This document shows positions 9,615 to 57,374 of a DNA stretch of 64,000 nucleotides, piece by piece. This stretch comes from a virus. Taxonomy: Duplodnaviria; Caudoviricetes. Within the stretch, counting starts at the first letter, position 1; every line of letters begins with the position of its first letter. Below the pieces are notes generated by a model. It made no database searches. It was given only the letters and a program-made list of their open reading frames with translations, and was not told the origin of the DNA. The position numbers and the translations under genes are program-made. The DNA lies in IMG/VR virus record IMGVR_UViG_3300047539_000055; one strand, given 5' to 3'.

Positions 9615-9615
9615 A

Positions 9616-13607: not shown

Positions 13608-13840
13608 TGGAAAACTTCAAAGCCGGAGACTTCGCAAAATTTGATTGTACTGATGGAAGGTCACCCGGATTTCTTGTTAAAATTCTTAGTAAGGATCGTG
13701 TAGATAATATGATGTATGATGCATGGAAGGTAAAATATAAAGGGCGAGAGTATGGTTACATAATGGAAAAACATCTTACCAAAATGACAGACGAAGAAGC
13801 AATGTTGATGATGTTTGAGGAGCAATATGAAAGTCGGTGA
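13607..13840 (+). CDS. Array B protein, tag TDEEAMLMMFEE
   Basis: FKAGDFA. Confidence 0.8.
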   Translation: MENFKAGDFAKFDCTDGRSPGFLVKILSKDRVDNMMYDAWKVKYKGREYGYIMEKHLTKMTDEEAMLMMFEEQYESR

Positions 13841-14021
13841 TTTTGTCAAATATGATGTCAAGGGTACTATGGTGCATGTTGGTAGATTGATTGAATACAA
13901 ACCAACAGTGAATTATTGGATGGTATTTTATTTTCAGCCACAATGCATTCTTCCATCACTGCCTGAATTCCTTACTAAAATGAGCGATGAAGAAGCCATG
14001 TTGTATATGTTTGAAAAATAA
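13827..14021 (+). CDS. Array B protein, tag SDEEAMLYMFEK
   Basis: MKVGDFV. Confidence 0.8.
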   Translation: MKVGDFVKYDVKGTMVHVGRLIEYKPTVNYWMVFYFQPQCILPSLPEFLTKMSDEEAMLYMFEK

Positions 14022-30268: not shown

Positions 30269-30478
30269 AATGAATTATTGTGATAGAGAAAAAATCCCGT
30301 TACTGATTATTCCATATACCGAAAAACAAATAGAATTGTCCTTAAAAATATTTTTAAAATCTATACAAAATAAACCAAAGAAATATATTGTAAATGATAA
30401 ATAGAAGTGCTATAGTAATTATATAGCAACATGGAATGTAACAAATATTATGGTAACATGGACATAAGGAGAACTATC

Positions 30479-31471
30479 ATGGGAACAATTTCAACCCTCG
30501 CTGCAATAAGGGCGCGACTGGCTCAAGCCGAGCAAAACAAAACAACAAATTATGATAATGCATTTTATCCTTTCTGGAATGCCAAGACAGGCTCAACGTC
30601 TACTCTTCGCTTTCTTCCAGATGGCAACCAAAACAATACCTATTTTTGGGTAGAAAAACTACAAATCAAACTTCCTTATAATGGCATCAAAAACGGTGAC
30701 GCAAAACCAATCACTGTCAGCGTACCTTGTGTTGAAATGTTTGGACGTGAAGAATATCCTCAAGGATGCCCTATCCTTAGTGAAATTCGCGTATGGTACA
30801 AGGACGAAACCCTCAAGGAAAAAGCAAACAAATATTGGAAGAAACCTTCCTATATTATGCAGGGATTTGTTCGTGAAAACGCAGTTGCAGACGATAAAGC
30901 ACCAGAGAATCCAATTCGCCGTTTTAGTTTGAACAAGCAATTGTTCAATTTGGTAAAGGCTGGTTTGATGGATGCAGATATGATCAACATTCCTTCTGAT
31001 TATGAAAAGGGAAGCGATTTCCGCGTTAGCAAAACACAAGATGGTTTGTATGCGGATTATGGCACAAGCAAGTACACTCGTAACGAAAGTCCTCTAACTC
31101 AGGTCGAACTTGACGCAATTGAAAAGTTTGGTTTGAGTGATCTTAGTGGATTCCTTGGTAAGAAGCCAACGGCAGAAGACCTCAAGATTATTCGTGAGAT
31201 GTTTGAAGCCTCTGTTGATGGTGAAGCTTACGATAATGAAAAGTGGGGTAACTTCTATCGCCCAGCAGGTTTGAAGAGTGATAAGACTGAAGAAGCCAAG
31301 ACAGAAACAAAGTCAGTGGCAACAGAGACTCCAGCCGATGAACCAGTTTCGCATGTTGAAACTGCTTCAGTTGAAGCCGTAGTCGCTCCAAAAATCGACG
31401 CAGCCGAAATCCTTAAGAAGATTAGGGAACGCAGTAACAAGCCAGCAAAAGAAGCAGTAAAAACAGCATAA
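30479..31471 (+). CDS. Single-stranded DNA-binding protein (T4 gp32-like)
   Basis: LRFLPD, CVEM..CPI, YWKK.SY, G.DF...KT...YADY.TS; acidic C-terminal tail; start at MGTIS after AAGGAG. Confidence 0.88.
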   Translation: MGTISTLAAIRARLAQAEQNKTTNYDNAFYPFWNAKTGSTSTLRFLPDGNQNNTYFWVEKLQIKLPYNGIKNGDAKPITVSVPCVEMFGREEYPQGCPILSEIRVWYKDETLKEKANKYWKKPSYIMQGFVRENAVADDKAPENPIRRFSLNKQLFNLVKAGLMDADMINIPSDYEKGSDFRVSKTQDGLYADYGTSKYTRNESPLTQVELDAIEKFGLSDLSGFLGKKPTAEDLKIIREMFEASVDGEAYDNEKWGNFYRPAGLKSDKTEEAKTETKSVATETPADEPVSHVETASVEAVVAPKIDAAEILKKIRERSNKPAKEAVKTA

Positions 31472-31859: not shown

Positions 31860-32924
31860 ATGGGAAAACCATTTGATTTAAGTAAGTTCCGACGCGGTAT
31901 CACGAAATCAATTGAAGGTATTTCAGTGGGATTCCACGATCCAAAGACTTGGATTAGTACTGGGAACTTTGCTTTAAACTATTTGATATCAGGGAAATTT
32001 GAGGCAGGAATTCCCCTTGGAAAAGTAACCGTATTTGCTGGTCAACCAGCCAGTGGAAAGAGTTTGGTAGTAAGTGGCAATATTATTAAGCACGCGCAAG
32101 ATATGGGAATCTATGTCATTCTTGTAGATACTGAAAACGCTTTGGATGAACCGTGGCTCCAGGCTTTCGGTGTTGATACAAGTGAAGACAAATTACTCAA
32201 ACTAAGTTTATCCATGATCAATGATGTTGGCAAGTTATTGAGTGATTTTATCAAGAGTTATCGCGAAGATGACCCAGAAACTAGACCAAAAATATTGTTT
32301 GTAATTGACAGTCTTGGAATGCTTCTATCACCGTCAGACGTAGCACAATTTGAAAAGGGCGATATGAAGGGTGATATGGGCATCAAACCCAAGCAGTTAA
32401 AAGCATTAGTAAAGAATGTCCTCAATCAGTTTGCCGATCTTGATATCGGTTTAGTTGCAACTAATCATACCTATGCAAGCCAAGACCCTTACAGCCCTGA
32501 TGATATCGTCAGTGGTGGTTCTGGATTCATTTTCGCGGCCTCAATCGTTGTTGCTATGAAACCATTGAAACTGAAAGAAGATGAAGACGGTGTAAAAGGT
32601 ACAAAGGTTTTGGGTATTCGTTCTGGCTGTAAGATTATGAAGACTCGTTATAATCAACCGTTTACCACAACAGAAGTTGTTATACCTTATGATCAAGGTA
32701 TGTTACCATATTCAGGATTGTTTGAATTATTTGAAGAACAAGGGTTACTAACCAAGGAAGGAAATAGTTATTGCTATACTGATAATGCTGGTAAGGTTCA
32801 TAAAGCATTTCGTAAGAAATATCTCAAAAACGAAGACGGAATACTTGATTTGATTATGAGTGAATATAACACTGAACAAGTCAGACCAAACTTAACAAAT
32901 CCTCAACTTTTAGAGGATGAATAA
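31860..32924 (+). CDS. uvsX: RecA-like recombinase
   Basis: AGQPASGKS, DTENAL, VIDSLG, TNHTY, SGGSG, MKTRY. Confidence 0.93.
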   Translation: MGKPFDLSKFRRGITKSIEGISVGFHDPKTWISTGNFALNYLISGKFEAGIPLGKVTVFAGQPASGKSLVVSGNIIKHAQDMGIYVILVDTENALDEPWLQAFGVDTSEDKLLKLSLSMINDVGKLLSDFIKSYREDDPETRPKILFVIDSLGMLLSPSDVAQFEKGDMKGDMGIKPKQLKALVKNVLNQFADLDIGLVATNHTYASQDPYSPDDIVSGGSGFIFAASIVVAMKPLKLKEDEDGVKGTKVLGIRSGCKIMKTRYNQPFTTTEVVIPYDQGMLPYSGLFELFEEQGLLTKEGNSYCYTDNAGKVHKAFRKKYLKNEDGILDLIMSEYNTEQVRPNLTNPQLLEDE

Positions 32925-33177
32925 TATGACCCTGATGCAATTAGAATCACACATCTCAATTCCTGAAATTCATCACAAGATATTACAGAATTATACAGGA
33001 GCATATGCACTTGGGGTCACGCGCCTAAATGCTGAAAGCAACGAAGGAGCGTTTCATCTTCATGTGACTGGTGAAACTCTTGCCGAGTTTCCAGATCAAG
33101 TTGAGATTGATGGGGAGGATGTGCCTGTATTGGTTAACAGAAATTGGACTCCTCCAATTACTCAGGCTCACGATTAG
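32917..33177 (+). CDS. Hypothetical protein
   Basis: ORF with GAGG SD; 3' end overlaps the convergent kinase. Confidence 0.5.
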   Translation: MNNMTLMQLESHISIPEIHHKILQNYTGAYALGVTRLNAESNEGAFHLHVTGETLAEFPDQVEIDGEDVPVLVNRNWTPPITQAHD

Positions 33178-33820
33178 TATCCCCATAACTGAATACTGCA
33201 TAAGGATCAGTTATAACTATTGTTCCGTCTGATCGTTGCATTACATTACTTCTACCCATATCATTTAAAAAACCTTCCATGTACTTACCGACAAGTCGCA
33301 AAGCGTCCACTAATGATGGGTCATTTTTTAGATAATAAGGAACTGGAGCACCAAAGGGATATAATTCTTCTAGTGACCTAGTCGGATATTGAATTATTCT
33401 AAAGAAAGTAGATGTATCAATTCCATTATCGCGTCCGAGTGCGGATAATTTTTCAATCAAATATATGTAAAATTTTCTGCCATTGATATTCATAACTTTC
33501 ATATCGCCAATTTTTGGAAAATGAACATTGTCAAAGTCTTTAATTAAAGTAGCGTAATGTTCAAAACCCTTATCTGGTGATTTATTTATTTTTAATACAA
33601 ATGGTTTTTTATCGTTGGTAAATACTGCACTGAAATGCCCATCATTCAAATAATGCCAACCCAGTTTGCTTAATTTAGCTCGTAATTCCGTATCTTGAGT
33701 TGACATTTCTACAGGGTTTTTTGTTTTGTGAGCTATATTGCGTTGTGGGAAATAATTAAACGCAGCATCCTCAACATCTTTATCAATCATCGGAGTGTCA
33801 TCAAATTCGTATAGTCTCAT
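33158..33820 (-). CDS. T7 gp0.7-like Ser/Thr protein kinase K5
   Basis: LNDGHFSAVF, FVLK, YLIEKL, NDMGRSNVM, ITDPY; start MRLYEF. Confidence 0.8.
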   Translation of the reverse strand: MRLYEFDDTPMIDKDVEDAAFNYFPQRNIAHKTKNPVEMSTQDTELRAKLSKLGWHYLNDGHFSAVFTNDKKPFVLKINKSPDKGFEHYATLIKDFDNVHFPKIGDMKVMNINGRKFYIYLIEKLSALGRDNGIDTSTFFRIIQYPTRSLEELYPFGAPVPYYLKNDPSLVDALRLVGKYMEGFLNDMGRSNVMQRSDGTIVITDPYAVFSYGDTNREPE

Positions 33821-33824
33821 AATA

Positions 33825-34448
33825 TTACTCAGAATAAGGATCGGTAAGTACAATCGTTCCATCTTTGCGTTTCATAAAATTATCAGCGTGCAAATCCAAC
33901 CAGCCGTTCTCAACATTGTTTCCAATTATTCGTAAGGCTTGTACCAGCTTTGGATTTTCCGCTAAAATATCAGGTATTGGTGAATCATAGTGTTGTCTGA
34001 ATATTTCTTTCAATGATTTTTTTGGGAAATTTAGTATTGATTGAAATGAATCTCGATAATATTCTCGACGATCTTTATTTGAAATTGGATATAGTCTCTC
34101 AATGAGATAAATATAGTAATTAGTTTCACCAAATGTCAAAGTTTTAACAGCGCTAATTTTTGGAAAGTGAGGATTTGGATTACCCTGTAAAACACGGACA
34201 TATCGAGCATATCCTGTATCTTCTCTAAAGGTTAGTTTGACAACATAGTTTTTCTTTGGATTGAAGAATACGGAAGCAAATTTGCCATTGTCTAAAAACT
34301 TCCAACCAAGTTCAGCCATTTTGTGTTCAAACTTTTTATCATATGTATAATCATACGAACTATCTGAACCATATGTATTATCACGATCAGCAAGGTACTC
34401 TGATGCGTAATCACTTAGTTTCGGTTTGTTGAACTCAATAAGTTTCAT
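33825..34448 (-). CDS. T7 gp0.7-like protein kinase K4
   Basis: LDNGKFASVF, YVVK, EDTGY, DLHADNFM, LTDPY; start MKLIEF. Confidence 0.85.
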   Translation of the reverse strand: MKLIEFNKPKLSDYASEYLADRDNTYGSDSSYDYTYDKKFEHKMAELGWKFLDNGKFASVFFNPKKNYVVKLTFREDTGYARYVRVLQGNPNPHFPKISAVKTLTFGETNYYIYLIERLYPISNKDRREYYRDSFQSILNFPKKSLKEIFRQHYDSPIPDILAENPKLVQALRIIGNNVENGWLDLHADNFMKRKDGTIVLTDPYSE

Positions 34449-34450
34449 TT

Positions 34451-35155
34451 TTACCAACCATCGTCATCCCAACCACCGTAATCCTGTTTTTCACTACTCT
34501 CTATAAAAGAATAAGGATCAGTAATTACAGCCGTTCCATCTTTTCGTTGCATTATATTACCAGCGTGCATATCAATTTTAAACTTTGATTTCTTAGCCCA
34601 AGATGCCACAAGCTTAATTGCTGTGACAAATTCATCATTGGAAAGTACTTTCTCAAGAATACTCTGCCAATTTGCTTGTGTATAATTAGATGGTGCCGAT
34701 ATATTCTGAATTGTAAGCGCACCAGCACCACCAATCATTGTTCTTAAAATTTTACTGTATATCTCACCCCAAGGAGCTTCCATTTCAACTAGTTTTTCAA
34801 TGAGATACATTCCGAACGTTTCACCGCCACTTTTCAAAGTTTTCAAATCACTTAAATGCGGAAAATACTTGTTTGGATGTGCCTTGATCAATTTGACATA
34901 CTCTGCATATCCAGGATCAGAAACCATTGCTAATTTTAATACATACGATTTTCTAGGATTACTAAATACATAACTAAAATTTCCGTGACCTAACCTCTGC
35001 CAACCTAACTTGCTGAGTTTGTTAATCAATTCCTCTTCATCTTCACCAAATTCTGAGTCATCAACATATGTCATACTGCCTTTTCGGAGGTAGTTTTTTG
35101 CCACTGTTTCTTCGGACTTACTAATTTTTGGCTCTCTTAATTCAAATATTTTCAT
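34451..35155 (-). CDS. T7 gp0.7-like protein kinase K3
   Basis: LGHGNFSYVF, YVLK, DMHAGNIM, ITDPYSF; start MKIFEL. Confidence 0.85.
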   Translation of the reverse strand: MKIFELREPKISKSEETVAKNYLRKGSMTYVDDSEFGEDEEELINKLSKLGWQRLGHGNFSYVFSNPRKSYVLKLAMVSDPGYAEYVKLIKAHPNKYFPHLSDLKTLKSGGETFGMYLIEKLVEMEAPWGEIYSKILRTMIGGAGALTIQNISAPSNYTQANWQSILEKVLSNDEFVTAIKLVASWAKKSKFKIDMHAGNIMQRKDGTAVITDPYSFIESSEKQDYGGWDDDGW

Positions 35156-35156
35156 A

Positions 35157-35807
35157 TTACTTACCCGTATGTGATAGATTGAATGTATGGAACATTGAAT
35201 ATGGATCGGTGATAACCAAATCTCCATTAGCACGTTGCATAATATTTTCATCGTGTATGTCAATGTTGAAACCGAATTTACGAGAATAAATACGAAGCCA
35301 TTTTAGAGCTTCCATCAACTCATTATTATTCCGAATAAACTCTGGAACACCGTCTGGAAATAATTCAGAAATTGGTTGAGAATAATTAGCAATAATGGTT
35401 TCTAATGCTTCAGACCAATCCCTGCTAGTCCTATAAGAAATGTGTTGCAATTTCTCAATGAGATAAACGTAAAAATTTTGCTCACCAGCTTTTAAAAGTT
35501 TCTTATCACTGATTTGTGGGTAATACTTATTTGGATGCTCATGAATCAAATTTACATATTGTTCGTACCCAGGATCGGGTTGTTTGTTTAACTTTAGAAC
35601 ATAAGATGATTTTTTACTGTTTGCAAAAACTATGCTGAATGCACCAAAACCAATTTCATACCAGCCAAGTGATCTTAGATTATCTTCTAGTATGACACGA
35701 TCATCAAAAAACCGAGATGTATTGTTAACCCAGTCAGATGTGGCTTCCTCTTCTTCTGGAGTTATGTGAGGCACGTCGAGTTCATAGTCAAATTCAAATA
35801 TTTTCAT
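35157..35807 (-). CDS. T7 gp0.7-like protein kinase K2
   Basis: IGFGAFSIVF, YVLK, DIHDENIM, ITDPY; start MKIFEF. Confidence 0.85.
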   Translation of the reverse strand: MKIFEFDYELDVPHITPEEEEATSDWVNNTSRFFDDRVILEDNLRSLGWYEIGFGAFSIVFANSKKSSYVLKLNKQPDPGYEQYVNLIHEHPNKYYPQISDKKLLKAGEQNFYVYLIEKLQHISYRTSRDWSEALETIIANYSQPISELFPDGVPEFIRNNNELMEALKWLRIYSRKFGFNIDIHDENIMQRANGDLVITDPYSMFHTFNLSHTGK

Positions 35808-36539
35808 TTAGCTTCCTGGAAAATTTGGAGGTCTGCTATTAGTATTTTTTGTAGACTTATCCTTAAAATTGAATGATTGTTGCCCGGAGCGAGAACCATA
35901 CCCATTATAAGCCATCTTTGGAAAAGAATAAGGATCAGTGATTACTAATGCTCCACTCTCTCGTTTCATAATATTACCACTATGGATGTCAATGATATAA
36001 CCATATTTACGAGAATAAACGCGAATCCATTTCAAGGCCGTTATCAACTCTTGATTATCAACAATAATATCTGGAACACCATCTGGAAATATCTCATTTA
36101 TTGGAGTATGGTATTGCCTGATTACTCTTTTTAGATCGCTACTTAGTCCATAGGGGTCTTCGTCTTCTCTATACGGTTTCAATTTTTCAATCAAATATAC
36201 ATAGTATTTGCTATCTTGAATATTTAAAAGTTTCATATCACTTATTTGAGGGAAATACTTATTTGGGTGTTTCAGAATCAAATCAACATATTTTTGATAA
36301 CCAGGGTCGGGTTGAATATTAACCTTCAGAACGTATTTTTTGGATGGATTTACTAAAACCATACTAAAAACGCCACTTCCTAATACTTTCCAACCCAGTT
36401 TTTCGAACTGTTCTTGCATCATATCCTTGTCGGCATAAAGCGCAGGGTAACCAAATTTTCCAATAGCAGTCGAAGCGGCCTTTTCCTCTTCAGGAGTGAT
36501 TGCTTGATCGCGAGGTTTGAACAACTCAAGAATCTTCAT
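35808..36539 (-). CDS. T7 gp0.7-like protein kinase K1
   Basis: LGSGVFSMV, YVLK, DIHSGNIM, ITDPYSF; start MKILEL; TAAATA 7 nt upstream. Confidence 0.85.
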   Translation of the reverse strand: MKILELFKPRDQAITPEEEKAASTAIGKFGYPALYADKDMMQEQFEKLGWKVLGSGVFSMVLVNPSKKYVLKVNIQPDPGYQKYVDLILKHPNKYFPQISDMKLLNIQDSKYYVYLIEKLKPYREDEDPYGLSSDLKRVIRQYHTPINEIFPDGVPDIIVDNQELITALKWIRVYSRKYGYIIDIHSGNIMKRESGALVITDPYSFPKMAYNGYGSRSGQQSFNFKDKSTKNTNSRPPNFPGS

Positions 36540-36557
36540 TATACAGTATTTATTCTA

Positions 36558-36586
36558 TTGACTTGTTTTGGCTGTTGATCTATAAT
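36558..36586 (+). promoter_or_regulatory. sigma70-like promoter for the uvsY operon, back-to-back with the kinase late promoter
   Basis: TTGACT-N17-TATAAT; TATTTA (minus-strand TAAATA) at 36547-36552. Confidence 0.75.
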
Positions 36587-36629
36587 GATTGTATACACCT
36601 AAATAGACGGTAATTATAAGGAAACTAAA

Positions 36630-36863
36630 ATGCAAAAAGATACACCAGAAGTTATTACTGAATGTTGGCAACTTCTCGTGGAGTATATTCCACATCGTGA
36701 TCGCGCCACCGCCGCCGAACATCTTTTCAGCTATCTTGGAAGTGTTTTAAGCAAAGAGGAACAGGAAGCAATTTCCGATCTTGACGGTGCCGATTTGTCC
36801 GACGCATATTTTGCGAATTTGGACGAAGAAAACTCAGACAAATATAGGGAAGAAGACGAATAA
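36630..36863 (+). CDS. Conserved acidic hypothetical protein upstream of uvsY
   Basis: W..L.EYIP..DR..AA.HL pattern. Confidence 0.65.
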   Translation: MQKDTPEVITECWQLLVEYIPHRDRATAAEHLFSYLGSVLSKEEQEAISDLDGADLSDAYFANLDEENSDKYREEDE

Positions 36864-37315
36864 TGTGGTATAATCGCATAGTGGCATCCCTTGACGAAAT
36901 ACCTAATTTCATAGATCATTATGAACAAGAACTGGCTCTCGCTAAAAAAGAGATTTATATCAAGGGTAATGTGGAGAAGAATCTCGCAGACCTACCAGGA
37001 ATCACCGAAAACAGATTTAACCAGTTAGAAGAAGTAGAAGCAGTCCTAAACTTTCTAAATCTACGATTACGAAAGATTCGACGCAAGCATTTTCAAATAT
37101 ATTTGGAAGGATATAACAGAGTATTGACTAGCCGAGATGCCGAGAAATATGTGGATGGTGAGGAAGAGGTTGTAGAGTTTGAAATGCTTATCAATGAAGT
37201 GGCTTTATTGCGTAATAAATATCTTGGAATTATGAAAGGTTTGGAATCAAAGAACTTTATGATTGGACACGTAGTAAGGCTTAGAACAGCCGGAATGGAA
37301 GATGTAAGCTTATGA
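36863..37315 (+). CDS. uvsY: Recombination mediator
   Basis: YLEGYNRVLTSRDAEKYVDGE...K.F.IG..VRLR.AG; located near uvsX. Confidence 0.8.
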   Translation: MWYNRIVASLDEIPNFIDHYEQELALAKKEIYIKGNVEKNLADLPGITENRFNQLEEVEAVLNFLNLRLRKIRRKHFQIYLEGYNRVLTSRDAEKYVDGEEEVVEFEMLINEVALLRNKYLGIMKGLESKNFMIGHVVRLRTAGMEDVSL

Positions 37316-37386
37316 TAAAACAATGTCTCTGGTCTGGTGGTTTAGATTCAACATATAATACACAAAATAGCTCTCAGAGGAAAATA

Positions 37387-38367
37387 ATGACAATCAAAAT
37401 GAAAAGCGACGACGATTTGTTGAATGACGCATTAGATAAAGAATCAAGCGGTGCTGACAGTGCGAATCGTGGTCAAACCGCAAAATCTCGCGATCCGTGG
37501 GATGATGAAGAAGAGTCTGGAAGTGAAGGAAGTTTTGAATTCAAACAATGGCAAGTTGGTGCCAATGATATATTTAGACCAGCGGGAACCACTCGTCAGT
37601 CTATTCCTTCAGGAGTTTTTGAATTTGATCGTGACGATAGCGGTTTATATGCCAAGAAAATCAATGTAATTACAGATTCATTGGTTGAACTTCCTGACAA
37701 TGCCAGTGAAAGAGTTGTTAAAGGAATGAAGAAATTTTGGAGTATGGAAGCTCGTTATAGAGAGCATGGACTGTTATACAAAAGAGGAATACTTTTATGG
37801 GGGCCGCCAGGATCGGGCAAAACTGTCACAATTAGTTTGCTTAATAAATACCTCATTGAAAATGGTGGAATTGTTGTAATGTGTAGCCATCCTAAACTTA
37901 CATCAATGGGTTTAGAAGCAATCAGGCGTATTGAACCAACTCGTCGCATCATCTGTATTATGGAAGATATTGACGAAATCATTGAGAAGTATGGCGAACA
38001 CGATTTGCTATCGCTTTTAGACGGTGAAAATCAAGTGGAAAATATTGTCATGTTGGCAACTACCAACTATCCAGACCGTCTTGGTGCGCGTATTGTCAAT
38101 CGTCCTTCTCGTTTTGATGAAAGAATTTTGGTTGATATGCCAGGTTCATCAGCACGTAGAGTGTATCTTAAGAATATCATTGGTGAATGTCCAGAGTTAA
38201 CCAAATGGGTTGATGAAACCGATGGTTTGAGTGTGGCTCATCTTCGTGAATTAACCGCTGCTGTTCGCTGTTTGGATCAGGATTATGATGAGGTTTTGAA
38301 TCGTCTCAAGAAGATGAAGCAGAAGGTCAAGAGTATTGAAGGGAACGAAACAAAGGTGGGATTCTGA
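37387..38367 (+). CDS. AAA+ ATPase
   Basis: RGILLWGPPGSGKT, IMEDID, LLDG, ATTNYP, NRPSRFD second region of homology. Confidence 0.9.
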   Translation: MTIKMKSDDDLLNDALDKESSGADSANRGQTAKSRDPWDDEEESGSEGSFEFKQWQVGANDIFRPAGTTRQSIPSGVFEFDRDDSGLYAKKINVITDSLVELPDNASERVVKGMKKFWSMEARYREHGLLYKRGILLWGPPGSGKTVTISLLNKYLIENGGIVVMCSHPKLTSMGLEAIRRIEPTRRIICIMEDIDEIIEKYGEHDLLSLLDGENQVENIVMLATTNYPDRLGARIVNRPSRFDERILVDMPGSSARRVYLKNIIGECPELTKWVDETDGLSVAHLRELTAAVRCLDQDYDEVLNRLKKMKQKVKSIEGNETKVGF

Positions 38368-38850
38368 TGAATGAATTTAATAAAGCCTTTTGGAAACGAT
38401 TTGCCAAAGCAAGGATAGGATGGACTGAGAAATTACAGCCATTAGTTGATGCTTCTCTTGTTTGCGAAAAATTAATAATGAAAGACGTTGAATTTAAACC
38501 AATTATTACAAAGGAATTATTAATTCCTTTGTCAAAGGAATTATGATAACTAAAGTAGTAGATTTTGCCAATAGATTTAATGATAAATTCTGGTCAATCG
38601 CGGGGCCAATAATTCTAATGGTTATGACAATATGGTTCTGTTGTTTAATGTTTTATATAACATATAGCATTTTTGAATGGACAGCGCATATTATGAAAGG
38701 ATAATTATGAAAACAATTGATACAGAAGAAAGCGTTAACATTGATTTTGACAAGGAAGAACAAGAACTTGTTGAACTCTCAATGAATGATATTACAATGG
38801 AAGACCAAACGTATTTTGATTCAGAAGATAATGGTAATCAACCATCATAG

Positions 38851-39249
38851 ATGAATAACCTTAACACTGACGATCAATGGAATATGCTGAGTATGGCACT
38901 TTCCTCACGAATAGTAATTGATACTTTGATTGGCTTTTATGACGGTAAAGTAATGTGGACTGCCGCCGAAGAAGGCATTAGAACTATTGAAGAAGTTCGT
39001 GAAATCCTGCGTCATTTGTATGATAGGGACAAGGTTGATCCAACAGTTTTTTGGTCAAGACAATTCACCAGATTTAACAATTATAATCAACAAAAGTTCC
39101 TATTGGAAGTAGCTGAAGAGAAGCGATGGATGACTTGGGAAGATGATTTAGAACAATGGATGACGAATAAAGAGATTCTAATTGATTATTTTTCAGCAGT
39201 GGAAGCTAAAGCCTTGGCTTATTGCCGACATGGTAGAAGTTGTATTTAG
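38851..39249 (+). CDS. Hypothetical protein
   Basis: 132 aa ORF. Confidence 0.55.
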   Translation: MNNLNTDDQWNMLSMALSSRIVIDTLIGFYDGKVMWTAAEEGIRTIEEVREILRHLYDRDKVDPTVFWSRQFTRFNNYNQQKFLLEVAEEKRWMTWEDDLEQWMTNKEILIDYFSAVEAKALAYCRHGRSCI

Positions 39250-39285
39250 AGAGGGTATTTGTTTGCTGGTGGGATAAATACTACT

Positions 39286-39540
39286 ATGAAATCGCAAACA
39301 AAGTCACTATTGGAAAGTCTTGTGGATTTGCACCCTTCTCAAGATACTTCCCTTATTATTGAGTCTCGCGGATCACATATCATAGCCTCTGCAATCGCAC
39401 TATTAGAAACAATTGAAGAAGAATACGGCCAACAATTAGCAGAAAACCTCGAAAAAAGACTACTCAGTAGTATCCGCAATAAAAACAATGGAAAATTTAC
39501 AAGGGCCACAAAAGCTCTTGGAAAACTAACAAAGAATTAG
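39286..39540 (+). CDS. Conserved late hypothetical protein
   Basis: TAAATA-N5-ATG; IESR..HII.SAI.LLE...LEKRLL.SIR...KF.R. Confidence 0.7.
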   Translation: MKSQTKSLLESLVDLHPSQDTSLIIESRGSHIIASAIALLETIEEEYGQQLAENLEKRLLSSIRNKNNGKFTRATKALGKLTKN

Positions 39541-39548
39541 GAGATATT

Positions 39549-39812
39549 ATGTATAAGAATCATAGATATGGTCTTGGTTTTCAGCCTGGTCAGACATTCA
39601 AATTGAACCCGACTGCAAAGAAGATTTGGCTTGCTTATAGTCTTGGCCCAGCACTCTATGCTTTGCCTCTTAATTCAAAGATTGGAAAGCGATTGTTTCA
39701 GGATATGATTAACAATGTCATTGAAGATAAGGAATTTCATGCCAAGGCTTTTGCAGAATCAACAGCTTTCTGGCCAGATGCTTTGAAAGATGCAATTTTA
39801 GTTGAAAATTAA
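39549..39812 (+). CDS. Hypothetical protein
   Basis: GGGAG SD. Confidence 0.55.
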   Translation: MYKNHRYGLGFQPGQTFKLNPTAKKIWLAYSLGPALYALPLNSKIGKRLFQDMINNVIEDKEFHAKAFAESTAFWPDALKDAILVEN

Positions 39813-40018
39813 CCCCAAGAATGTTCAACGGGATTACATCTTCTACTTATTTCTTCAAATCCCAAATTGTTCAGAACAGTTTTTAAACATTCAGCAGATG
39901 CTTTGTCTGAAAGCTTTATGGCATTTGGACTGAGATAACTAACCATCTTCAAATACCCACCATTTTCGCAAACACCAACACACATCCTTCCATCGTCCAA
40001 AAGCCAAGCAATTTGCAT
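39809..40018 (-). CDS. Hypothetical protein
   Basis: AGGAGG SD. Confidence 0.55.
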   Translation of the reverse strand: MQIAWLLDDGRMCVGVCENGGYLKMVSYLSPNAIKLSDKASAECLKTVLNNLGFEEISRRCNPVEHSWG

Positions 40019-40027
40019 TGTGCCTCC

Positions 40028-40717
40028 TTAAGAATAAGGATCGGTTATGACTAGTGTTCCGTTGGCTCTTTGCATCATGTTGTTTTGATGCAAATCCATA
40101 TACTTACTTCCTTGATCATTAGCGATAATGTTCAATGCCAAGACTAAATCTGGATTCTGTTTAAAAATTAGTGGGATTTTTCCATTAAAATATAAAACCA
40201 AAGACTCAATATCCGGTGTGTTAGCGGCACGAAATTGACTTGCCATCGCTGTATCAAATATTTTTTCATATCGTTGTGCGCGTGCCAGTGGGATTTCTTC
40301 TAACTTTTCAATTAGATAAACGCAGTAATTATTCTTGCCTATTTTCATTACCTTCATATCACTGATTTTAGGAAAGAATTTATTTGGATTCTTTTTAATA
40401 ATCGTTGCATATCGTTCATAGCCTTTATCTTCTCGCTTGTTAACCTTCAGAACAAATGATTTTTTGGGGTTGCCATAGATAGAACTAAACACACCCCAAC
40501 CAATTTTTTCCCATCCCATTTTTTCAAGATTGCTTGTCAATGTGTCATCAACATCAGCAATTGCATTCATACGAGCTTCAATATCATTTGTGCTTAAACT
40601 ATTGGGTAATTTAGATGACAATGATTTATTATATGGATGACGCTGTCTGAAGTAATCAAACGCAGTATTGGTTACACGCTTTCCAATCTTTGGTCGGGTT
40701 AATTCATTGATATTCAT
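40028..40717 (-). CDS. T7 gp0.7-like protein kinase K6
   Basis: IGWGVFSSIY, FVLK, EDKGY, DLHQNNMM, ITDPYS; start MNINEL. Confidence 0.85.
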   Translation of the reverse strand: MNINELTRPKIGKRVTNTAFDYFRQRHPYNKSLSSKLPNSLSTNDIEARMNAIADVDDTLTSNLEKMGWEKIGWGVFSSIYGNPKKSFVLKVNKREDKGYERYATIIKKNPNKFFPKISDMKVMKIGKNNYCVYLIEKLEEIPLARAQRYEKIFDTAMASQFRAANTPDIESLVLYFNGKIPLIFKQNPDLVLALNIIANDQGSKYMDLHQNNMMQRANGTLVITDPYS

Positions 40718-40725
40718 ATCATTTC

Positions 40726-41154
40726 CTAAGAATAAGGATCAATAATAACTATTGTTCCATCTTCTCTCTGCATTATATTAAATCTTCATAAGCACCCATA
40801 ATACTGCCATTAATTTGCCCGCTATTCCCCATGGAATCTTATATAATTTTTCAATCAGATAAACATAATAATTATTCCCATTAAAGCGTAATTTTTTCAT
40901 ATCGCTAATGATTGGAAAATGTTTGTTTGGGTGTCTATGTATGAGTCTGACATATGCCTCATAACCTATATCTGGATCATTTAGTTTTTTCAAAATATAT
41001 GGTTTACTTTTATTTCCATAAACAGAAGCAAACGATCCAAAATCCAATTCAATCCATCCAAGTTTTTCCATATGTTCTTCAAACGCGACTCTACTCAACT
41101 CTCCTTTGAATGAAGAAAATGCCAATTTTTGATTGGTTCTGTAATTTTTGGCAT
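40726..41154 (-). pseudogene. Decayed kinase paralog K7
   Basis: N-lobe LDFGSFASVY/YILK/YLIEKL intact; NIMQREDGTIVIIDPYS* out of frame; catalytic DxH segment deleted; MPKITEPIK start also frameshifted. Confidence 0.75.
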
Positions 41155-42578
41155 TATATTATTAGCCTCCAAGAACCGGCATCATATGGCCCTTCATAAC
41201 CTCTCACCCAAACATTGCCATTCCATTGACATTGAAGATTTATAGCATTGTCATAAACAAACGATATATTTCCAATATTATTTTCGGCTGAGAATGTTGT
41301 CACCCAACTGTTTCCAGTATAGGTAATAATATCATTCACATTTGCCGTAGCCGAACTGTTTCCAGAATCGTAAGGCCAAGCCGATCCAATAGACGAAGTA
41401 ATTAAATATGAATCACCGATATTAGCATTGGATAACCCGTATCCTGGCGCTACTTGTTCTGGATTGACAATTGAAATAATAGCTGGCAGTGTATTTGCCG
41501 GCAGTGTTGCGACATTTGCATTGTATAGAAGAATAGTAGGATCGGTTGGATCAACAGTAATTGTTCCAAGGATTTCATTGACACTGTAATCATAAGACAA
41601 TCCAATCTGAGAAACACCCGGTCTAACATTTCCATAGGTTCCAAGCACGGCGGTCCAATCCAATGGACTTCCAAAAAAGAAAGGAGAAGCTGTTAAATTA
41701 GCTGAAAGATTGGCAGAGCTTAGAGTATTTGAAGCGTCCCAAAAAGCAATGGGATTATCGGTATGAGTCACATTCGCAGTTGGCCCTTGTTGTAAGATTC
41801 TGATTTGACCATTGGTTACAAGTAAACCATAATTGTTAAATGTAACAACTTGGCGAGTATTCAACACCAAATCATTCAAATCATTTGTGGCATTGATATC
41901 CATAATAACTTTGAAAATGACACCCATCTTGCTAACTTGTGCAGGAAGAGACATCCATATTGGTGCTTCAAATTGCAGGGTGCATACATCATAGGAACTA
42001 TCACTATTTTGACCAATTGGAATTGATCTATTAGTCCAAGTTACATCCATCAATTCCAAATAACTAAGACTTTCCCAATCCAAATAGTTATCTGTCTTTT
42101 GAATTTCTAATGCTGGATTAAACAAAGGAAGAATTTGCTCAAGAATTTGTGTTTTTTGCTGTGTATTTGATGTAACAATATCAACCTTGATTTCCAATTT
42201 GTAAGGAACTGGCATGAATCGTTTAACAGTATAAGCATTGGCTTGCGCAGGTAAATATGCGCCGACATTCGCATCGTATTGGCGAGTTCTAACAGATAAG
42301 GTATCTTGAAATGTTGGGGTTTGAGTTCTGGGACGATCAAATTTCAAATTTGAGATATAGATACTAAACATTGGAAACGATGCCATCACGTTTTCTGAGT
42401 TCAATCTTAAAATTGTGGCGGCGGAAAATGTGCTATCTCCATAAATTGCAGGAACAGTGCTGTATGCTTGACTGCCATCGGAATTCAAACCATAAGTGAC
42501 AGTAAAACCAGAAAATAAACGAACGATCTGATACATCCACTTACGGAGATTTTCATCGTAAAAATATTGACTTCCCAT
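41154..42578 (-). CDS. Tail sheath stabilizer/terminator (T4 gp15-like) with C-terminal extension
   Basis: QYFYD...R.F, MPVPY.L, QILEQILPLFNP, TLQF..P.W...P. Confidence 0.8.
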   Translation of the reverse strand: MGSQYFYDENLRKWMYQIVRLFSGFTVTYGLNSDGSQAYSTVPAIYGDSTFSAATILRLNSENVMASFPMFSIYISNLKFDRPRTQTPTFQDTLSVRTRQYDANVGAYLPAQANAYTVKRFMPVPYKLEIKVDIVTSNTQQKTQILEQILPLFNPALEIQKTDNYLDWESLSYLELMDVTWTNRSIPIGQNSDSSYDVCTLQFEAPIWMSLPAQVSKMGVIFKVIMDINATNDLNDLVLNTRQVVTFNNYGLLVTNGQIRILQQGPTANVTHTDNPIAFWDASNTLSSANLSANLTASPFFFGSPLDWTAVLGTYGNVRPGVSQIGLSYDYSVNEILGTITVDPTDPTILLYNANVATLPANTLPAIISIVNPEQVAPGYGLSNANIGDSYLITSSIGSAWPYDSGNSSATANVNDIITYTGNSWVTTFSAENNIGNISFVYDNAINLQCQWNGNVWVRGYEGPYDAGSWRLII

Positions 42579-42687
42579 TGTTTTTCCTGTATAATTGAAC
42601 TATATATATTTAGCCAAAAAAGATAAATAGATATGTAGTTCGCGGTGATCAGACCCAACTACTCTAAGGCTTTTAGGAGCATCAGCT

Positions 42688-43488
42688 ATGAATATTTATT
42701 CAACTAAATTTTTCCAAGACAATAGATTCTATGTCTATATGTATCTGCGCGAAAAAGACTCAATATATGGCTTAGCAGGAACTCCTTACTATATTGGTAA
42801 GGGAATTGGTAATAGAGCATTTGCTCCACATCATAAAGGAATATCTGTACCAAAAGATAAAAACAGAATTCAATTTATTTGCGAAAACATAAAAGAAATA
42901 GATGCTTTTAATTTAGAAATATATCTTATTTGTTTATATGGTCGTATAGATTTGAAAACTGGATGTCTTCACAATATGACAAATGGCGGCGATGGTAGTT
43001 CTGGCCATATTAAGTCTCAGGAAACAAGACAAAAACTTTCAAAAGCCTTAAAAGGAAAACCATTATCAGAAATTTCAAAATATCATAAATCATTAGCAGC
43101 AAAAGGCAGAAAACTTACCAATAAACAAAAAGCCAGCTTGTTAAAGGCAAATATTGGCTCCAAGCGTACTGACGCGCACAAATTGGCAATAAGTAAATCA
43201 CTCCAAGGAAGAAAATTCTCAACACAACATAAAGAAAATTTAAGATTATCTCAACTGGGAAAGAAAGCATCTGTAGAAAGTAAAAAGAAAATGTCCGATG
43301 CTAAGATTGGTAAACCTGGACATTTACATACTGCTAAAAGTAAGCTACAAATTAGTCTAAAATTACGAGGAAAGAAACGAAAATTATATGAATGTAACGT
43401 GTGCCATAAACAAATTGGCGGAATAACAAATTTAAATCGTCATTTATTCAAACATTCTAATATAATTGACTACTACTTGTGCTCATAA
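42688..43488 (+). mobile_element. Free-standing GIY-YIG homing endonuclease with NUMOD3 repeats
   Basis: FYVYMYLR...PYYIGKG...LE...N.T.GGDG; SQETRQKLS-type repeats; opposite strand to its neighbours. Confidence 0.85.
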
Positions 43489-45046: not shown

Positions 45047-45061
45047 AATTATATTTAGCTA

Positions 45062-45466
45062 TTATTTGTGTGATTTACTATTAACTGGGCTGATTTTGTG
45101 GACTTCTTCCTGTTCTTGTGAATATCTATTAGATAATTTGGCTGGTGTAAACCCACAAAGTTGTGCGGCACGATCAATAATTTTTTGATCCCAGTCCGAA
45201 TATCCTGCTGAAAATGGATGATCTGACACTGGAGATGATTTTGACATTTTTGGTTCATTTGGAAGACTTGCGGCCATAACAAGCGAACGCATGTGTCCAT
45301 AAGGTGTCATCTCTGGATACCATGCGGCGTTTGGCAATGCTGAAGAATGATCAGGGTTTAGTTTTCCTTCACCCTGACCACCAGAATCACTATCAGCAAC
45401 CATCATATCTTCTTTGGATTCTTTTACTGAGAATCTATGTGGACGCATTGGACTGATTTCTCGCAT
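45062..45466 (-). CDS. Hypothetical late protein
   Basis: In the late operon upstream of terminase; SPVN end motif. Confidence 0.65.
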   Translation of the reverse strand: MREISPMRPHRFSVKESKEDMMVADSDSGGQGEGKLNPDHSSALPNAAWYPEMTPYGHMRSLVMAASLPNEPKMSKSSPVSDHPFSAGYSDWDQKIIDRAAQLCGFTPAKLSNRYSQEQEEVHKISPVNSKSHK

Positions 45467-45978
45467 TAAATATTACCATCCTGATTGGTTAGACCGCCAA
45501 TAGGAACGATTTCAAGATTCTTTTCTTTTAAGAATTTGTCAATGAGTTCTACAAAGTCATCACCAGCACCGCCAAATTTTGAATTTAATAGATCACCTAA
45601 TTCTGTTACTGGATCATTTCCATCAACTTCTTGTTCACTACCATCGCCTTCTTTGTCGTTAAAATCCCATTTTGTTTCCGGACCATCTGGCTCACTACCA
45701 TCGCCTTCGTCGTCGTCGTTAAAATCTCCTGGCCCCCAATCCGGACTGCTACCGTCTGTGCCATTATTCGTTGGATCAGCATCATCTTCTCCAACACCAT
45801 TGTTGTCTTCTATCGCTTCATCTCCTGGTTCTTCATCACTAGTATCCCATCTGTTGCCATTATTCGTTGGCTCAGACGCGCCTTCTGGTTCAAAATCGCG
45901 CCAATTATCTGGATTACCGTCTGCTTCCGAAATCATCTGTGAATACTCTCTGAGTAATTCGCCTTCTGTCTTTTTCAT
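45466..45978 (-). CDS. Acidic putative internal head protein
   Basis: MKKTEGELLREYSQMISEA leader; D/E-rich repeats. Confidence 0.65.
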   Translation of the reverse strand: MKKTEGELLREYSQMISEADGNPDNWRDFEPEGASEPTNNGNRWDTSDEEPGDEAIEDNNGVGEDDADPTNNGTDGSSPDWGPGDFNDDDEGDGSEPDGPETKWDFNDKEGDGSEQEVDGNDPVTELGDLLNSKFGGAGDDFVELIDKFLKEKNLEIVPIGGLTNQDGNI

Positions 45979-45988
45979 TATATCTCCT

Positions 45989-46513
45989 TTAGTCGCAACT
46001 ATCCCATCTGGTGCCAACAAAAATCCATTTTCCATTTTCATTTTGTTTAACCTTCAATCTTGTACCATATCCAGCAGGGTGAAAATGCCTATAATATCTA
46101 TCTGAAGCTTCTGCGGCTTGCTCTTCAAAGTCAAATTCCTTTGACTTGACTTCCATCTGTCCTTCAATTAGAGGATCACCTTGTGCTTCAGCAATAATCT
46201 TGGAATACTCTCTCAGCATTTCCCCTTCAGAAAAAATCTTATCTGTCTTGTCCTGATCATAATATGTTTGGCCCGGTCGTGCAGGAGTTTCATTGGACAA
46301 TCTTACAGCATTACTCCATCCAGCATTGTATCCTTCACTATATTCATCTATTCCATTACTGGAATACTCACTCTTACGACCAAGTTTAAAATCTGACAAG
46401 GCAGAACGATAACCTTCAGACCATGCGGCATGATGACTTCTATAGTCTTCTGGAAATGCTTCGGCAAGAATCGTTTGATATTCTTGTAATAGTTCTGCGG
46501 TTGTCTTTGCCAT
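45989..46513 (-). CDS. Putative internal head protein with two LLxEY...AEA motifs
   Basis: ELLQEYQTILAEA and EMLREYSKIIAEA. Confidence 0.65.
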   Translation of the reverse strand: MAKTTAELLQEYQTILAEAFPEDYRSHHAAWSEGYRSALSDFKLGRKSEYSSNGIDEYSEGYNAGWSNAVRLSNETPARPGQTYYDQDKTDKIFSEGEMLREYSKIIAEAQGDPLIEGQMEVKSKEFDFEEQAAEASDRYYRHFHPAGYGTRLKVKQNENGKWIFVGTRWDSCD

Positions 46514-46515
46514 AA

Positions 46516-49500
46516 TTACTCCGTGTCGGCATCAGCAATAATATCTGAATATGATCTTAGTAAAGAACCTTCGGATTCATAGATACCTTTGCCAATATCC
46601 TTTACCTTGCCAACGGCGGCGGAATCACCACCATTAGTTTTTGGTTCATCACTCTTGGTTTCTTTCTGTCCCTCTGGCTTTGGTTCAGCTTCCTTTCCTT
46701 CTTCTGAAGCTTCTTTATCTTTCTTGGCTGGCTTATCATCAGACTTGCCAAAAGACTTCTTTGGCTTATCGTCAGATTTCGTCAGATTTTCTGATTTATC
46801 GTCAGAACCTTTCTTTGGTTCATCGGATTCCTCAGACTCTTCGTGCTTGCCTTTCAAAGAAGTCTTGACTGCTTCAAGCTTATCAGTGAAGCGTTCCAAA
46901 GATTGAGAAATCTTGGTTTTGGCAGATGGTGGCGCACTTAATTTCTTTACCTTCTTGCCAAGCGAATCCACTAAATCTCCGAGTTTCTTTGCCTTTGATT
47001 TGTTTATTGCTTCTAATACATCTTTTGGTTTCATTGTATCCTCTTTAACTTTTTTCTTGGCGGCGTTTTTTGCTTTGATACTGTCACAAGATGTCCAAGT
47101 TTCTTCAAAATGTTGAACCTTATCCCAATCTCCATCATCTACGGCTTTATGATACGCATTTAATGCTTTTTGATTTGGCGCAATATAATCATCGCCCGAC
47201 TCTGTTTTGAATTGTATGCCTTCTTTTACGGCCGGCTTATGTTTTTCACAAGGTTTATCCTTTGTACGCCAAAGACATCCCTTCACCTTGCAATAATCTT
47301 CTGGATGGTCGTTCTTTTTCTTGGCTACTGTTGCTGCGACGCGTTCTTCATTAACATTCCCTTTTTTCGCTTCATCATAATCACTTTTTGCATCTTCAAA
47401 ATCTTCTGTCGCCGCATCTCTTTCTTTAGTACTTGATTTTGGATTTGCAAACACATGATCCATTTCTGCTTCTGCATAGAGCATTGCATCTCTGGCAGAC
47501 GAAAGATAAGTATCGGATTCATTAGTTACTTTTTTCAAGGGAGATAGTTTAGTATTCATAGTAACTACCCCTTTTCCATTACAATGTGAACAAGTTACTT
47601 TTCCTTCCTTTCCAGAGCCGTCACAAAGATTACAAGTCTTCTTTTTTACATCCTCATCAACTTTTTTCTTACCTTTGCCTTCTGGATGATCCTTCTTGTA
47701 GCATGTTGGACATTGATCAATATCACTACCAGTTTTGATTCTCTTGTCGCATGAAACACAGAAGTCTTCTTTCAAAGTAGACTCTTTTACCGCATCATCA
47801 AGTTGCCACGTCAATCCTTTATAAAGAGGACTTATTCCCCATGCATCCTTGACTTCATCAGACGATGGAATAGAACCCTTTTCTGGATTCACAGAGTTCA
47901 ATGCTGGCTTGACTTCACCACTTGCTGTTTTTGCGCTAACCTTCATCGGAAACTTCAACGCTGGTCTAACTTCTCCAGAAGTTGCTGGTCTAACAACGGC
48001 TGGTGGCTCAGTTGCAGGAGGAGTGGCCCATTCATTTACTTTCTTAGGTGCTATAAAATTTTTACATTTGCAGGTGGGTTCACCATTCTTTGACGTATCA
48101 TCACCAAACATACACCCATAACTTCCGTGATTCCACATTGTATGCCCACAAGTATTACATTTTGTCTTTTCCGGAAGCTTTTCTTTACCTTCAGTCGCAA
48201 TGACTTCTTTATCGCCCTTACTTCTAAAAGGTTTGTCTTCTTCCTTCAAAGCCGAAAACTTCTTCTGAAGTTTCTCAGCAATAGCATTGATGCCAGCATC
48301 TTCGTGAAGTTTCTCTTCCTTCTTGTTCTTGGCAACAGTAAGAATATTGTCGCTTCCCTTGACAGGATTAAACATATCATGGGGTTGACTTAAACCATCA
48401 GTATCTTGGATGAGTGCTCTCCATCCGGCAATCTGTTCATTTGGTTCGTTAGACCAGCCGTGTGCTGCTCCATTCAACCCTTCTTTGCGACGTTCTGGTG
48501 TTAATGATTCATTCATTTTAGTTTCCTCTTTTCCACTTAACTTAAGTAATTCATCAATTCCTTCGCGAACACTGTTTGCGCATCTACCACAAATAACTCT
48601 GGATGGTGTGTTGCCATTTTTCGGAGTTTGAATTCCACAATTGTAGCAGCGACCATCGCCTTTATCATGCTTATTATTTTTCTTTTTACTTTCCGAAATG
48701 CTTTTATCATTTAATACTGGCACAATTTGTAATCCATACATCATAAATTTCTGTTTCGCATCCGCAGCAATTTTTTTGGCCTCATTTGCATCATCAAAAA
48801 TTGTCGCCTGAGACTTATCTAAAACTCGCACAAACTCTGGGTTTTCACCGGGATTACGATCATAATTCATTTTTATATAGATACGAACATAATGATCACG
48901 TCTTTGTGCATAATGACCCGTAATGTAATATCCAGATGCTTCTTTTAATACCTTACCATCCTTATTTACCGATTCAAATTCATCTCGGTAATCATCAGCT
49001 TCATTTTGGTTATAAGTTTCAAAATCATCAGGTTCCGAATCCTGACTTGAATCATATGACAAATCAATACCTGCATCATGAGTGTATTTGTAGCAATCCG
49101 CACAGAGTTTTTCATCATCTGCATTGCTATTGATTCCTTCTTCTCTTGGTGCTCCACAATTAGCGCAAACTTTAGTGTCTAAATCATATATATGTCCTTC
49201 ATTCACTTTGCTTTCAGTAAAATCGCCCACTTCAATATCGTTATCAAAATTCTGAATATCTAAATCTTCACGATCATCCATTGGCGCTGGTGCATCATGA
49301 CGAAGTGCTTGAAAACAAGCTGTACACAAACCACGAATAATTGAATTGGCTTCTTCGCCACATTCTTTACAAGTACCTACGCCTTCTAATTCATCGTCAA
49401 CAAGATTGCCAAAATCAGCATCTTCTTCGTTTCCTTCTGTCCAATCTTCATCTTGCAAGTCATTATCAATAGCGTTACCAAACTCGGAATCAACTTTGTT

Positions 49501-54398: not shown

Positions 54399-54416
54399 AG
54401 TTATATTTATACAAAT

Positions 54417-56363: not shown

Positions 56364-57374
56364 TTATACTTTTTTCAAATTTTCTAAAATCATACTTTTA
56401 ATCTTAAATGAGTTTTCTAACCAGTCATCTTCCCAAAAGGAAAGCAACTTGATATCATTATTAAGACACATTTGATATTTGTATTTATCCTTTTTCCAAA
56501 TTTCTGAAACCGCTATTTTCCCACGGTTTGAGCGAACCATATCAGTTGGTTTATACAATTTTGGATTTCCATGCCAGTAATTTCCTTGAATCTCAATGGC
56601 CACTTTATATTCTGGTAAATAGAAATCTAATTCCTTTGGCTTTATTTGTTTCATATCATTTTGCTTAAATTCTATATTATTTTCTTTTAACCAATTTGCT
56701 AATTCAACCTCATAACAAGAACGAACTCTTGAAATGATATTCAATCCTAACTTACGATGATAAACAACAATTGTACTTTTACTAACATTTAATTTATCAG
56801 CCATTTTTCGAGTTCCTAAATTTAATAACATTTCAGAAAATTTTTCTTTATTGTTTAATGTTTCACGAGCAAGTTCAGTAAAATGTACTTGTTTTTCGTG
56901 TATAACACCATAATCAGAGATACAATTTTGTTGTCGAGTATTAATTTGTTTTTTCATTATATCTTTATTACCATTAGCACTTATCGAACCATATCGCATT
57001 AAACAAGTTTGTTTTGTTTGTTCTTGAATGGTTGATAATCCTTGTATTCCTAGAACTCCATACTTATTCAACATTGTCTTATTTCTATTGTCAATAGTAC
57101 ACTGACATGATACTTTACAATTGAATTGAGAACCCTTTCTACTTTTTTTGAATTTTTGTTTTAATCCGTATGGACAAATTAACTTAAATCCATTGTGTAA
57201 TAACAACCAAACTTTTGCTGACAGCGATTCTGTTTCGTTAGGATAATTCTTTTCAAATTTAACTTTAATAAATGAAACTAATTCTCTGTCTCGTTTAATC
57301 GCGTCAATTGCTCTATAATGGCCAATTTCTTGAATTCTTAATACTTCGGCAATAGCAGTTTCTTCTGTATACAT
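56364..57374 (-). mobile_element. Free-standing PD-(D/E)XK/Vsr-like homing endonuclease between sheath and tube
   Basis: T.L.KYGV repeats; ELDFYLPEYKVAIEIQGNYWH...K...C...I.L...WE.DW. Confidence 0.75.

Follow-up and report, generated by a model that had tools for sequence, protein, structure and literature searches.

Tandem T7K-type kinase genes behind a late-type promoter box in an uncultured jumbo phage from peat

Kinase paralogues at two sites of the phage genome

The viral record IMGVR_UViG_3300047539_000055 comes from an uncultured jumbo phage of the T4 superfamily found in peat, and the stretch of it analysed here, referred to as the window, is 64,000 nucleotides (nt) long. The window carries a family of seven paralogous genes, K1 to K7, whose products resemble gp0.7, the protein kinase of phage T7 (T7K). 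All seven lie on the minus strand; six are intact and one, K7, is a pseudogene. An initial annotation of the same DNA had placed seven such paralogues between 33158 and 41154, and that count and position are borne out. Leaving aside whether their products are ever packaged into virions, the genes probably encode late-controlled T7K-type protein kinases that act on host proteins. The family would then be a fast-evolving multigene set of minimal T7K-type kinases, each consisting of a kinase core and a helical N-terminal extension of about 65 residues.

Five of the genes, K1 to K5, form a tandem array (33158-36539) that is sandwiched by uvsX and uvsY and runs antisense to both (Table 1). They are packed head to tail from K5 to K1 with inter-gene gaps of 0-4 nt. 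The other two, K7 and K6, directly follow a gp15-like tail gene and have no promoter-like box of their own. Pairwise identity of the paralogues to K1 is 32-38%, and the gene starts used throughout are those supported by the family. The start codon of K7 overlaps the stop codon of gp15 (TAATG), and its reading frame begins MPKITEPIKN before it is broken by a frameshift; the segment with the catalytic loop has been deleted, and a detached C-terminal remnant, MQREDGTIVIIDPYS, is found at 40726-40773. Megablast of the kinase region against cultured phages gave no near DNA match, and the large terminase (TerL) of the phage has 53% identity to that of Pseudomonas phage PA5oct. The phage is present in peat and permafrost metagenomes of many studies (public runs).

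Multiplicity is a conserved property of the family. An exhaustive profile search returned 4484 representative proteins at E<=1e-3, with 169 at E<=1e-30, and nine loci recovered from viral contigs carry between two and seven kinase copies each. These follow a conserved layout, in which TerL and gp15 are followed by 0-2 kinases and 2-7 kinases lie between uvsY and uvsX, so that the multi-copy state proposed for the window recurs in relatives at the same two sites; the order of gp15 followed by kinases is kept in the relatives L004-L007. In a tree of the family, deep paralogue lineages are shared between phages, in that K3 pairs with a copy from another phage (L001_3679-4479; 57% identity, support 99/99), K6 pairs with the copy at the same position in L004 (95/96) and K4 and K5 are sisters (98/97), with further recent local duplicates represented by pairs within L004 and within L002. 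Between phages, kinase identity peaks at 57%, compared with 60-80% for the flanking core genes. Judged from these sequences, the kinase copies evolve faster than the core genes, by a birth-and-death process of duplication and loss, a pattern that fits the expectation for genes in conflict with the host. As a separate observation on the same contigs, the uvsX-like gene of L009 (6270-8787) and an AAA ATPase gene of L004 (2354-4384; likewise in L005-L007) each match in two pieces lying 1-1.5 kb apart, which suggests inserted introns, inteins or endonuclease genes.

Table 1. Kinase genes and neighbouring features of the window
Feature	Coordinates	Strand	Remarks
K1	33158..33820	-	220 aa; start MRLYEF; catalytic loop DMGRSN, Asp and Asn retained
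K2	33825..34448	-	207 aa; start MKLIEF; Gly-loop LDNGKFAS
K3	34451..35155	-	234 aa; start MKIFEL
K4	35157..35807	-	216 aa; start MKIFEF; ATG abuts K5 stop
K5	35808..36539	-	243 aa; start MKILEL; first gene of the array; low-complexity C-terminal tail; phrog_15752 E 7e-15
ATAAATA late-promoter-like box	36547..36553	-	7 nt upstream of K5 ATG
K6	40028..40717	-	229 aa; start MNINEL; intact; downstream of gp15 and K7
K7 pseudogene	40726..41154	-	assigned by reading the sequence; hidden Markov model match spans positions 21-127 only
69-aa open reading frame (ORF)	39809..40018	-	GGAGG ribosome-binding site; co-oriented, just downstream of K6
gp15-like tail sheath stabiliser/completion gene	41154..42578	-	phrog_11196 E 4e-75; phrog_227 E 9e-22
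uvsX-like recombinase	31860..32924	+	RecA/UvsX-like sequence; 61-80% identity to the syntenic gene in relatives; array flank
uvsY-like mediator	36863..37315	+	phrog_231 E 9e-15; synteny; other array flank

A Pfam search with the 69-aa ORF gave no match. Elsewhere in the window, two genes of homing-endonuclease type interrupt the structural module: between gp15 and TerL stands one that looks GIY-YIG-like by its sequence (42688-43488, +), and a CTAAATA box precedes the other (56364-57374, -), which matches homing/HNH endonuclease PHROGs. A family of small ORFs of about 70 aa each, all starting MK[IV]GD[YF]V, occupies 9187-10267 and 13827-14021 (+).

A minimal kinase core and a late-type promoter box

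The assignment to the T7 gp0.7 type, which the initial annotation had made from motifs, is borne out by profile and structural comparisons alike. All six intact copies match phrog_15752, the T7 gp0.7 family (E 1e-11 to 8e-16), as well as phrog_2828, which includes T7K itself (E 1e-7 to 7e-4), and alignment by hhalign of a profile of the six copies, or of 131 relatives, with T7-like kinases gives a probability of 98.7% (E 2e-16). A Pfam search found no significant match for any kinase copy; the same search was also silent on the poly-kinase P0033, for which the precomputed Pfam annotation lists PF27024 (Phage_T7_kinase) as a weak match. The AlphaFold2 model of K6, built on 131 sequences, has a mean predicted local distance difference test score (pLDDT) of 92.5 and a predicted template modelling score of 0.88, and its best named matches among the viral models of BFVD are T7-like phage kinases. 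Against solved structures, the K6 model scores Z 5.6-7.3 over about 130 residues (VIA) and the AlphaFold2 model of K5 reaches a Foldseek probability of 1.00, the listed matches being protein kinases in both cases. Closeness to small-molecule kinases had been put forward as a check on the assignment; neither APH nor choline kinase is among the top structural matches listed by Foldseek and VIA, although such a listing does not by itself exclude them.

What is matched is the bilobal Hanks-type fold, comprising the N-lobe sheet, the alphaC helix, the hinge, the catalytic loop and the DFG motif. Since the chain stops after the DFG-like DPY, two residues past it in the K6 model and 1-40 residues past it across the copies, it has neither an activation segment nor helices alphaF to alphaI; the C-terminal shut-off/DNA-binding domain of T7K is missing as well. 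Six residues are invariant in the 131 family members, namely K91, D97, E137, D208, N213 and D226, which correspond to the beta3 Lys, the Asp that follows it, the hinge Glu, the catalytic Asp and Asn, and the DFG-like Asp. The motifs quoted in the initial annotation (the Gly-loop, V[LV]K, DxG[YF], YLIE[KR]L, D[ILM]HxxN and [IL]TDPY) are all present, the N-termini read as quoted, and the T7 motifs cited there (LGNGHFSA, EDSG, DMHSGNIM and ITDPVSF) are correct and align with their local counterparts. Six copies keep the catalytic Lys, Asp, Asn and Asp, K1 with the variant loop DMGRSN, and the first Gly of the Gly-loop is missing in K1 and K2. From their sequences, six copies look catalytically competent and one looks to be decaying.

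The late promoter of T4 is TATAAATA, and the window contains a box, [ACT]TAAATA, that resembles it. Of 44 such sites, 14 have an ORF start within the next 40 nt downstream, where about three are expected, an approximately fivefold enrichment, and the ORFs concerned include tail tube, TerL, gp15 (CTAAATA at 42607-42613) and K5. In each uvsY-side array lying fully on a contig, the same box stands 5-7 nt before the first ATG, the relatives concerned being L001, L002, L004 and L009. A five-domain poly-kinase gene is likewise preceded by it, and P0033 stands behind CTAAATA-7-ATG. No sigma-70-like site was found facing K5; a strong one in the spacer between K5 and uvsY points towards uvsY, away from K5. 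Late expression of the kinase arrays is well supported, and we infer it because the box of the tube, TerL and gp15 genes precedes arrays both here and in relatives, because no sigma-70-like site faces K5, and because K7 and K6 ride behind gp15. This agrees with the late expression originally proposed for these genes. The accompanying claim that a TAAATA promoter or gp15 lies ahead of every kinase holds for the array as a unit and for K7 and K6; within the array only K5 has a box of its own. The five-gene array would be read from a T4-type late promoter abutting its first ATG, with the genes tightly coupled, and K7 and K6 would ride on the gp15 tail transcript.

Two features of these promoter regions may be recorded beside this. 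The K5-uvsY spacer (36547-36605) is compact and divergent, combining the minus-strand late box with a plus-strand TTGACT-17-TATAAT (36558-36586) and a plus-strand CTAAATA (36599-36605). The box also occurs 5-7 nt before an ATG, with no Shine-Dalgarno sequence, at TerL (45052-45058), tail tube (54404-54410), K5 (36547-36553) and two plus-strand positions (2754-2760 and 39274-39280), so that, if transcripts start at a T4-like distance from the box, these late mRNAs would have little or no leader.

A short leader shared with other late-type proteins

All six intact copies, and about 95% of the 131 relatives, carry [LI]-x-E at residues 3-5. Across the family, Leu or Ile occupies position 3 in 114/120 and Glu position 5 in 115/121, and position 6 is hydrophobic. 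The leader, M-[KRN]-[LI]-x-E-[LF], is more conserved than most of the protein, its codons varying while the residues are kept, and at the sequence level it fits the (L/I)-x-E site of gp21, the T4 prohead protease. It had originally been compared with the capsid-targeting start found on T4 internal proteins; what survives of that comparison is the protease-type site. The kinases share with IPII and IPIII (start MKTYQEFIAEA) late-type production and an N-terminus that has Met-Lys at its start, a Glu-Phe pair and a nearby (I/L)-x-E, and they lack the ten-residue capsid-targeting sequence MKTYQEFIAE, in which positions 4 and 7 hold the targeting residues. Since the match is loose, and since a closer motif, ELLQEYQTILAEA, is borne by other late proteins of the window beside the terminase genes (45989-46513 and 45466-46041, -) and is absent from the kinases, a reading of the leader as an IPII/IPIII-type signal is not supported. 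Capsid-targeting-like motifs in the window (ELLQEYQTILAEA, EGEMLREYSKIIAEA, EGELLREYSQMISEA and EGSLLRSYSDIIADA) are distributed over these two proteins and the C-terminus of the 46516-51111 protein. By sequence, the proteins with the ELLQEYQTILAEA-type motif appear to be better candidates for head cargo than the kinases.

A better precedent for the leader appears to be T4 Alt, which starts MELITE followed by LF and loses these six residues by cleavage at ITE-6 (PMC5694885). The resemblance is short: MELITE-LF in Alt, MKILE-LF in K5 and MKITE-LY in a copy from L002. Like the predicted kinases, Alt is a host-modifying enzyme made late that has no IPII/IPIII-type capsid-targeting sequence. It differs in being unrelated in fold and chemistry, in being single copy and in also losing a C-terminal propeptide, and its packaging and cleavage by gp21 are proven, whereas those of the kinases are hypothetical.

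The same motif recurs within and beyond the kinase family. In natural poly-kinases of two to five domains, hydrophobic-x-E, usually [LIV]xE[LM], is found at the junctions that were read. P0033 (L020 193-3258), P0082, P0142 and P0151 are single chains of three to five kinase domains, and P0033 lies about 3 kb from a Gad2-family gene. The 1769-aa protein P0102 (L019 3254-8563), which has a CTAAATA box upstream, contains several copies of a PYGYWY repeat module and three kinase domains of the T7K type, and it ends in an anti-CBASS domain, Acb1 (PF23474, E 3e-23), with [RKL]-L-[DS]-E-[LM] ahead of the three kinase modules and of the first two copies of the non-kinase repeat. The motif also starts a 531-aa non-kinase protein beside P0102 in L019, and the N-terminal, non-kinase region of P0123, GNAT-like to the eye and without a Pfam match, begins with it. 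So does a 384-aa DUF4116-repeat protein of a relative, on contig G001 (L022 2-1153, -), which starts MKIIELLLEYNEQ behind ATAAATA-5-ATG. On the latter contig, a second copy of this promoter and of the first 21 codons lies 2 kb away, heading a 26-codon ORF (L022 3408-3488, +). A DNA pattern for the leader motif gave four matches in one 80-kb contig and none in a reversed control, and a word-based search for fused proteins longer than K6 and related to it came back empty. Because the motif recurs at poly-kinase junctions and on non-kinase late proteins, and because it resembles the start of Alt, we favour the view that it is a portable tag of module boundaries over the view that it is a purely structural element.

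Delivery, rival readings and place among phage kinases

By analogy with T7K, which disarms many defence systems through indiscriminate phosphorylation (PMC13645617), numerous host proteins, including defence proteins, are the most likely phosphorylation targets of the kinases. The preferences of individual paralogues would depend on the tail and on a variable helical insert that separates the hinge from the catalytic loop. Our best guess at a function is counter-defence, prompted by what is known of T7K, by the fusion to Acb1 and by the Gad2-family gene near another poly-kinase. For delivery, the leading model is that the leader acts as an Alt-like loading and processing tag for the prohead, trimmed by a T4-type prohead protease, since it fits the (L/I)-x-E protease site and parallels the six-residue propeptide of Alt. 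That the kinases are capsid cargo, loaded into the prohead, trimmed and injected at the next infection, is a tentative proposal drawn from the sequences, which we hold to be possible and stop short of calling probable. The same reserve applies to its extension, under which an Alt-like tag would be common to a wider set of late effectors including the Acb1 fusions, and a diversified set of promiscuous kinases might enter the cell ready-made and disarm its defences before any phage gene is expressed.

Several observations weigh against this delivery model. The kinases do not carry the capsid-targeting-type motif of the phage itself, ELLxEYxxxIxEA, which other late proteins bear, and a propeptide of five residues is short for a targeting signal. 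In the deeper K6 model residues 1-10 have a mean pLDDT of 77, which leaves room for the leader being docked as part of the fold; an earlier fold built on six sequences had given residues 1-9 low confidence. MAFFT aligns the leader to PIxEL, residues 17-21 of T7K, a protein that is neither packaged nor cleaved. This alignment is a weak lead because hhalign, with the profile of either the six copies or the 131 relatives, does not extend into the N-terminus of T7K. A search with T7K gave close T7 relatives only, too alike to show how the N-terminus of that family varies. Internal [LI]xE showed no depletion (2.6 against an expected 1.7, with the invariant hinge LIE included), in a test that is uninformative. 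In a separate search, the prohead protease family PF03420 had no match on three fragments from relatives, with the search control equally silent.

These points bear on the strongest rival, a real if less than probable alternative in which the kinases are made late, stay in the cytoplasm and are never packaged, their targets being host sensors of late structural proteins or else phage proteins. The leader would then be a structural piece of the N-terminal extension, as the moderate confidence of the modelled N-terminus and the PIxEL segment that T7K may share would allow, or an aid to translating near-leaderless late mRNAs, whose first codons may be constrained given a box-to-ATG distance of 5-7 nt. 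The absence of the T4-like capsid-targeting-type motif from the kinases also suits this alternative, as does the finding that most proteins of host and phage are phosphorylated by T7K (PMC13645617). Against it, poly-kinases keep the motif at their internal junctions, where it can play no part in starting translation, and it is present on non-kinase proteins and modules too. Moreover, its codons vary while the residues stay, and hhalign lends no support to homology with the T7K N-terminus.

A second rival concerns timing. If the TAAATA box were not a working promoter, the kinases could be made early or throughout infection, as T7 gp0.7 is; this seems improbable to us. The genome has about 37% GC and the box is short and AT-rich; 30 of the 44 copies of the box are not near a gene start, and one sigma-70-like site matching at 11 of 12 positions lies inside K2, facing K1. 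Set against this are the fivefold enrichment of the box before ORF starts and its place ahead of tube, TerL and gp15, its retention before the first kinase in relatives whose coding sequence has diverged, the location of K7 and K6 in the tail operon, and a count of sigma-70-like sites that equals the shuffle expectation. In four peat studies, contigs of RNA libraries include parts of K1-K5 with at least 99% identity, and in the same four libraries contigs of the ssb (gp32-like) gene (30400-31470 of the window) are several-fold deeper than their neighbours, which together suggest real transcription in the field and carry no information on timing. It must be added, as a point of caution, that RNA libraries may contain DNA and that the contigs lack strand and transcript ends.

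A third rival, that these are small-molecule kinases of the APH/choline-kinase type or inactive pseudokinase decoys, would draw on the missing C-lobe after the DFG-like Asp, on chains that stop two residues after DPY and on the replacement of DxHxxN by DMGRSN in K1, and is very improbable given that T7K with the same truncated core is an experimentally shown hyperpromiscuous protein kinase (PMC13645617), that the listed structural matches are all protein kinases and that the family shows no variation at the catalytic Lys, Asp, Asn and Asp.

The comparison with T7K thus extends over a homologous core with GxGxFS, VxK, (E)DxG, DxHxxN and TDP that is cut short in the same way straight after the DFG-like Asp, a comparably long helical N-terminal extension and carriage by a phage. 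The differences lie partly in the protein, since the kinases described here lack the shut-off/DNA-binding domain, have DPY in place of DPV and share the conserved [LI]xE start, and partly in the genetic setting. T7K is one class I early copy upstream of the phage RNA polymerase in a small podophage of the Autographiviridae, whereas six or seven copies are found here behind a late-type box or in a tail operon of a T4-type phage. The premise that T7-type kinases are single-copy early genes is correct for T7 and too narrow for the family as a whole, because T7K homologues had already been reported in the jumbo phages Munch of Salmonella and G17 of Escherichia (PMC13645617). Like the kinases of the window, these are divergent T7K-type proteins of very large phages that have lost the shut-off domain and in which the Val of DPV is relaxed. 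Neither phage matched K5 by tblastn at E<=1e-3, which places them on a different branch. A text search of that study for paralogues or multiple copies gave no mention of them (PMC13645617). In the literature searched, no description was found of such arrays, of their late control or two fixed insertion sites, or of the tag.

The T7K core is thus met here in a new context, as arrays of two to seven fast-turnover genes, apparently late-controlled, in giant phages of the T4 type commonly found in peat and permafrost, and with a tag that matches the site of a head protease. The fusion of poly-kinase to Acb1 connects these kinases with counter-defence, and in it nature supplies a test case for effector chains that would be cut by a protease. 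If they are packaged, these would be the first injected phage kinases and the second class of enzyme, after Alt, to be delivered via a T4-type head; if they are not, late kinases directed against defences that sense structural proteins would also be new.

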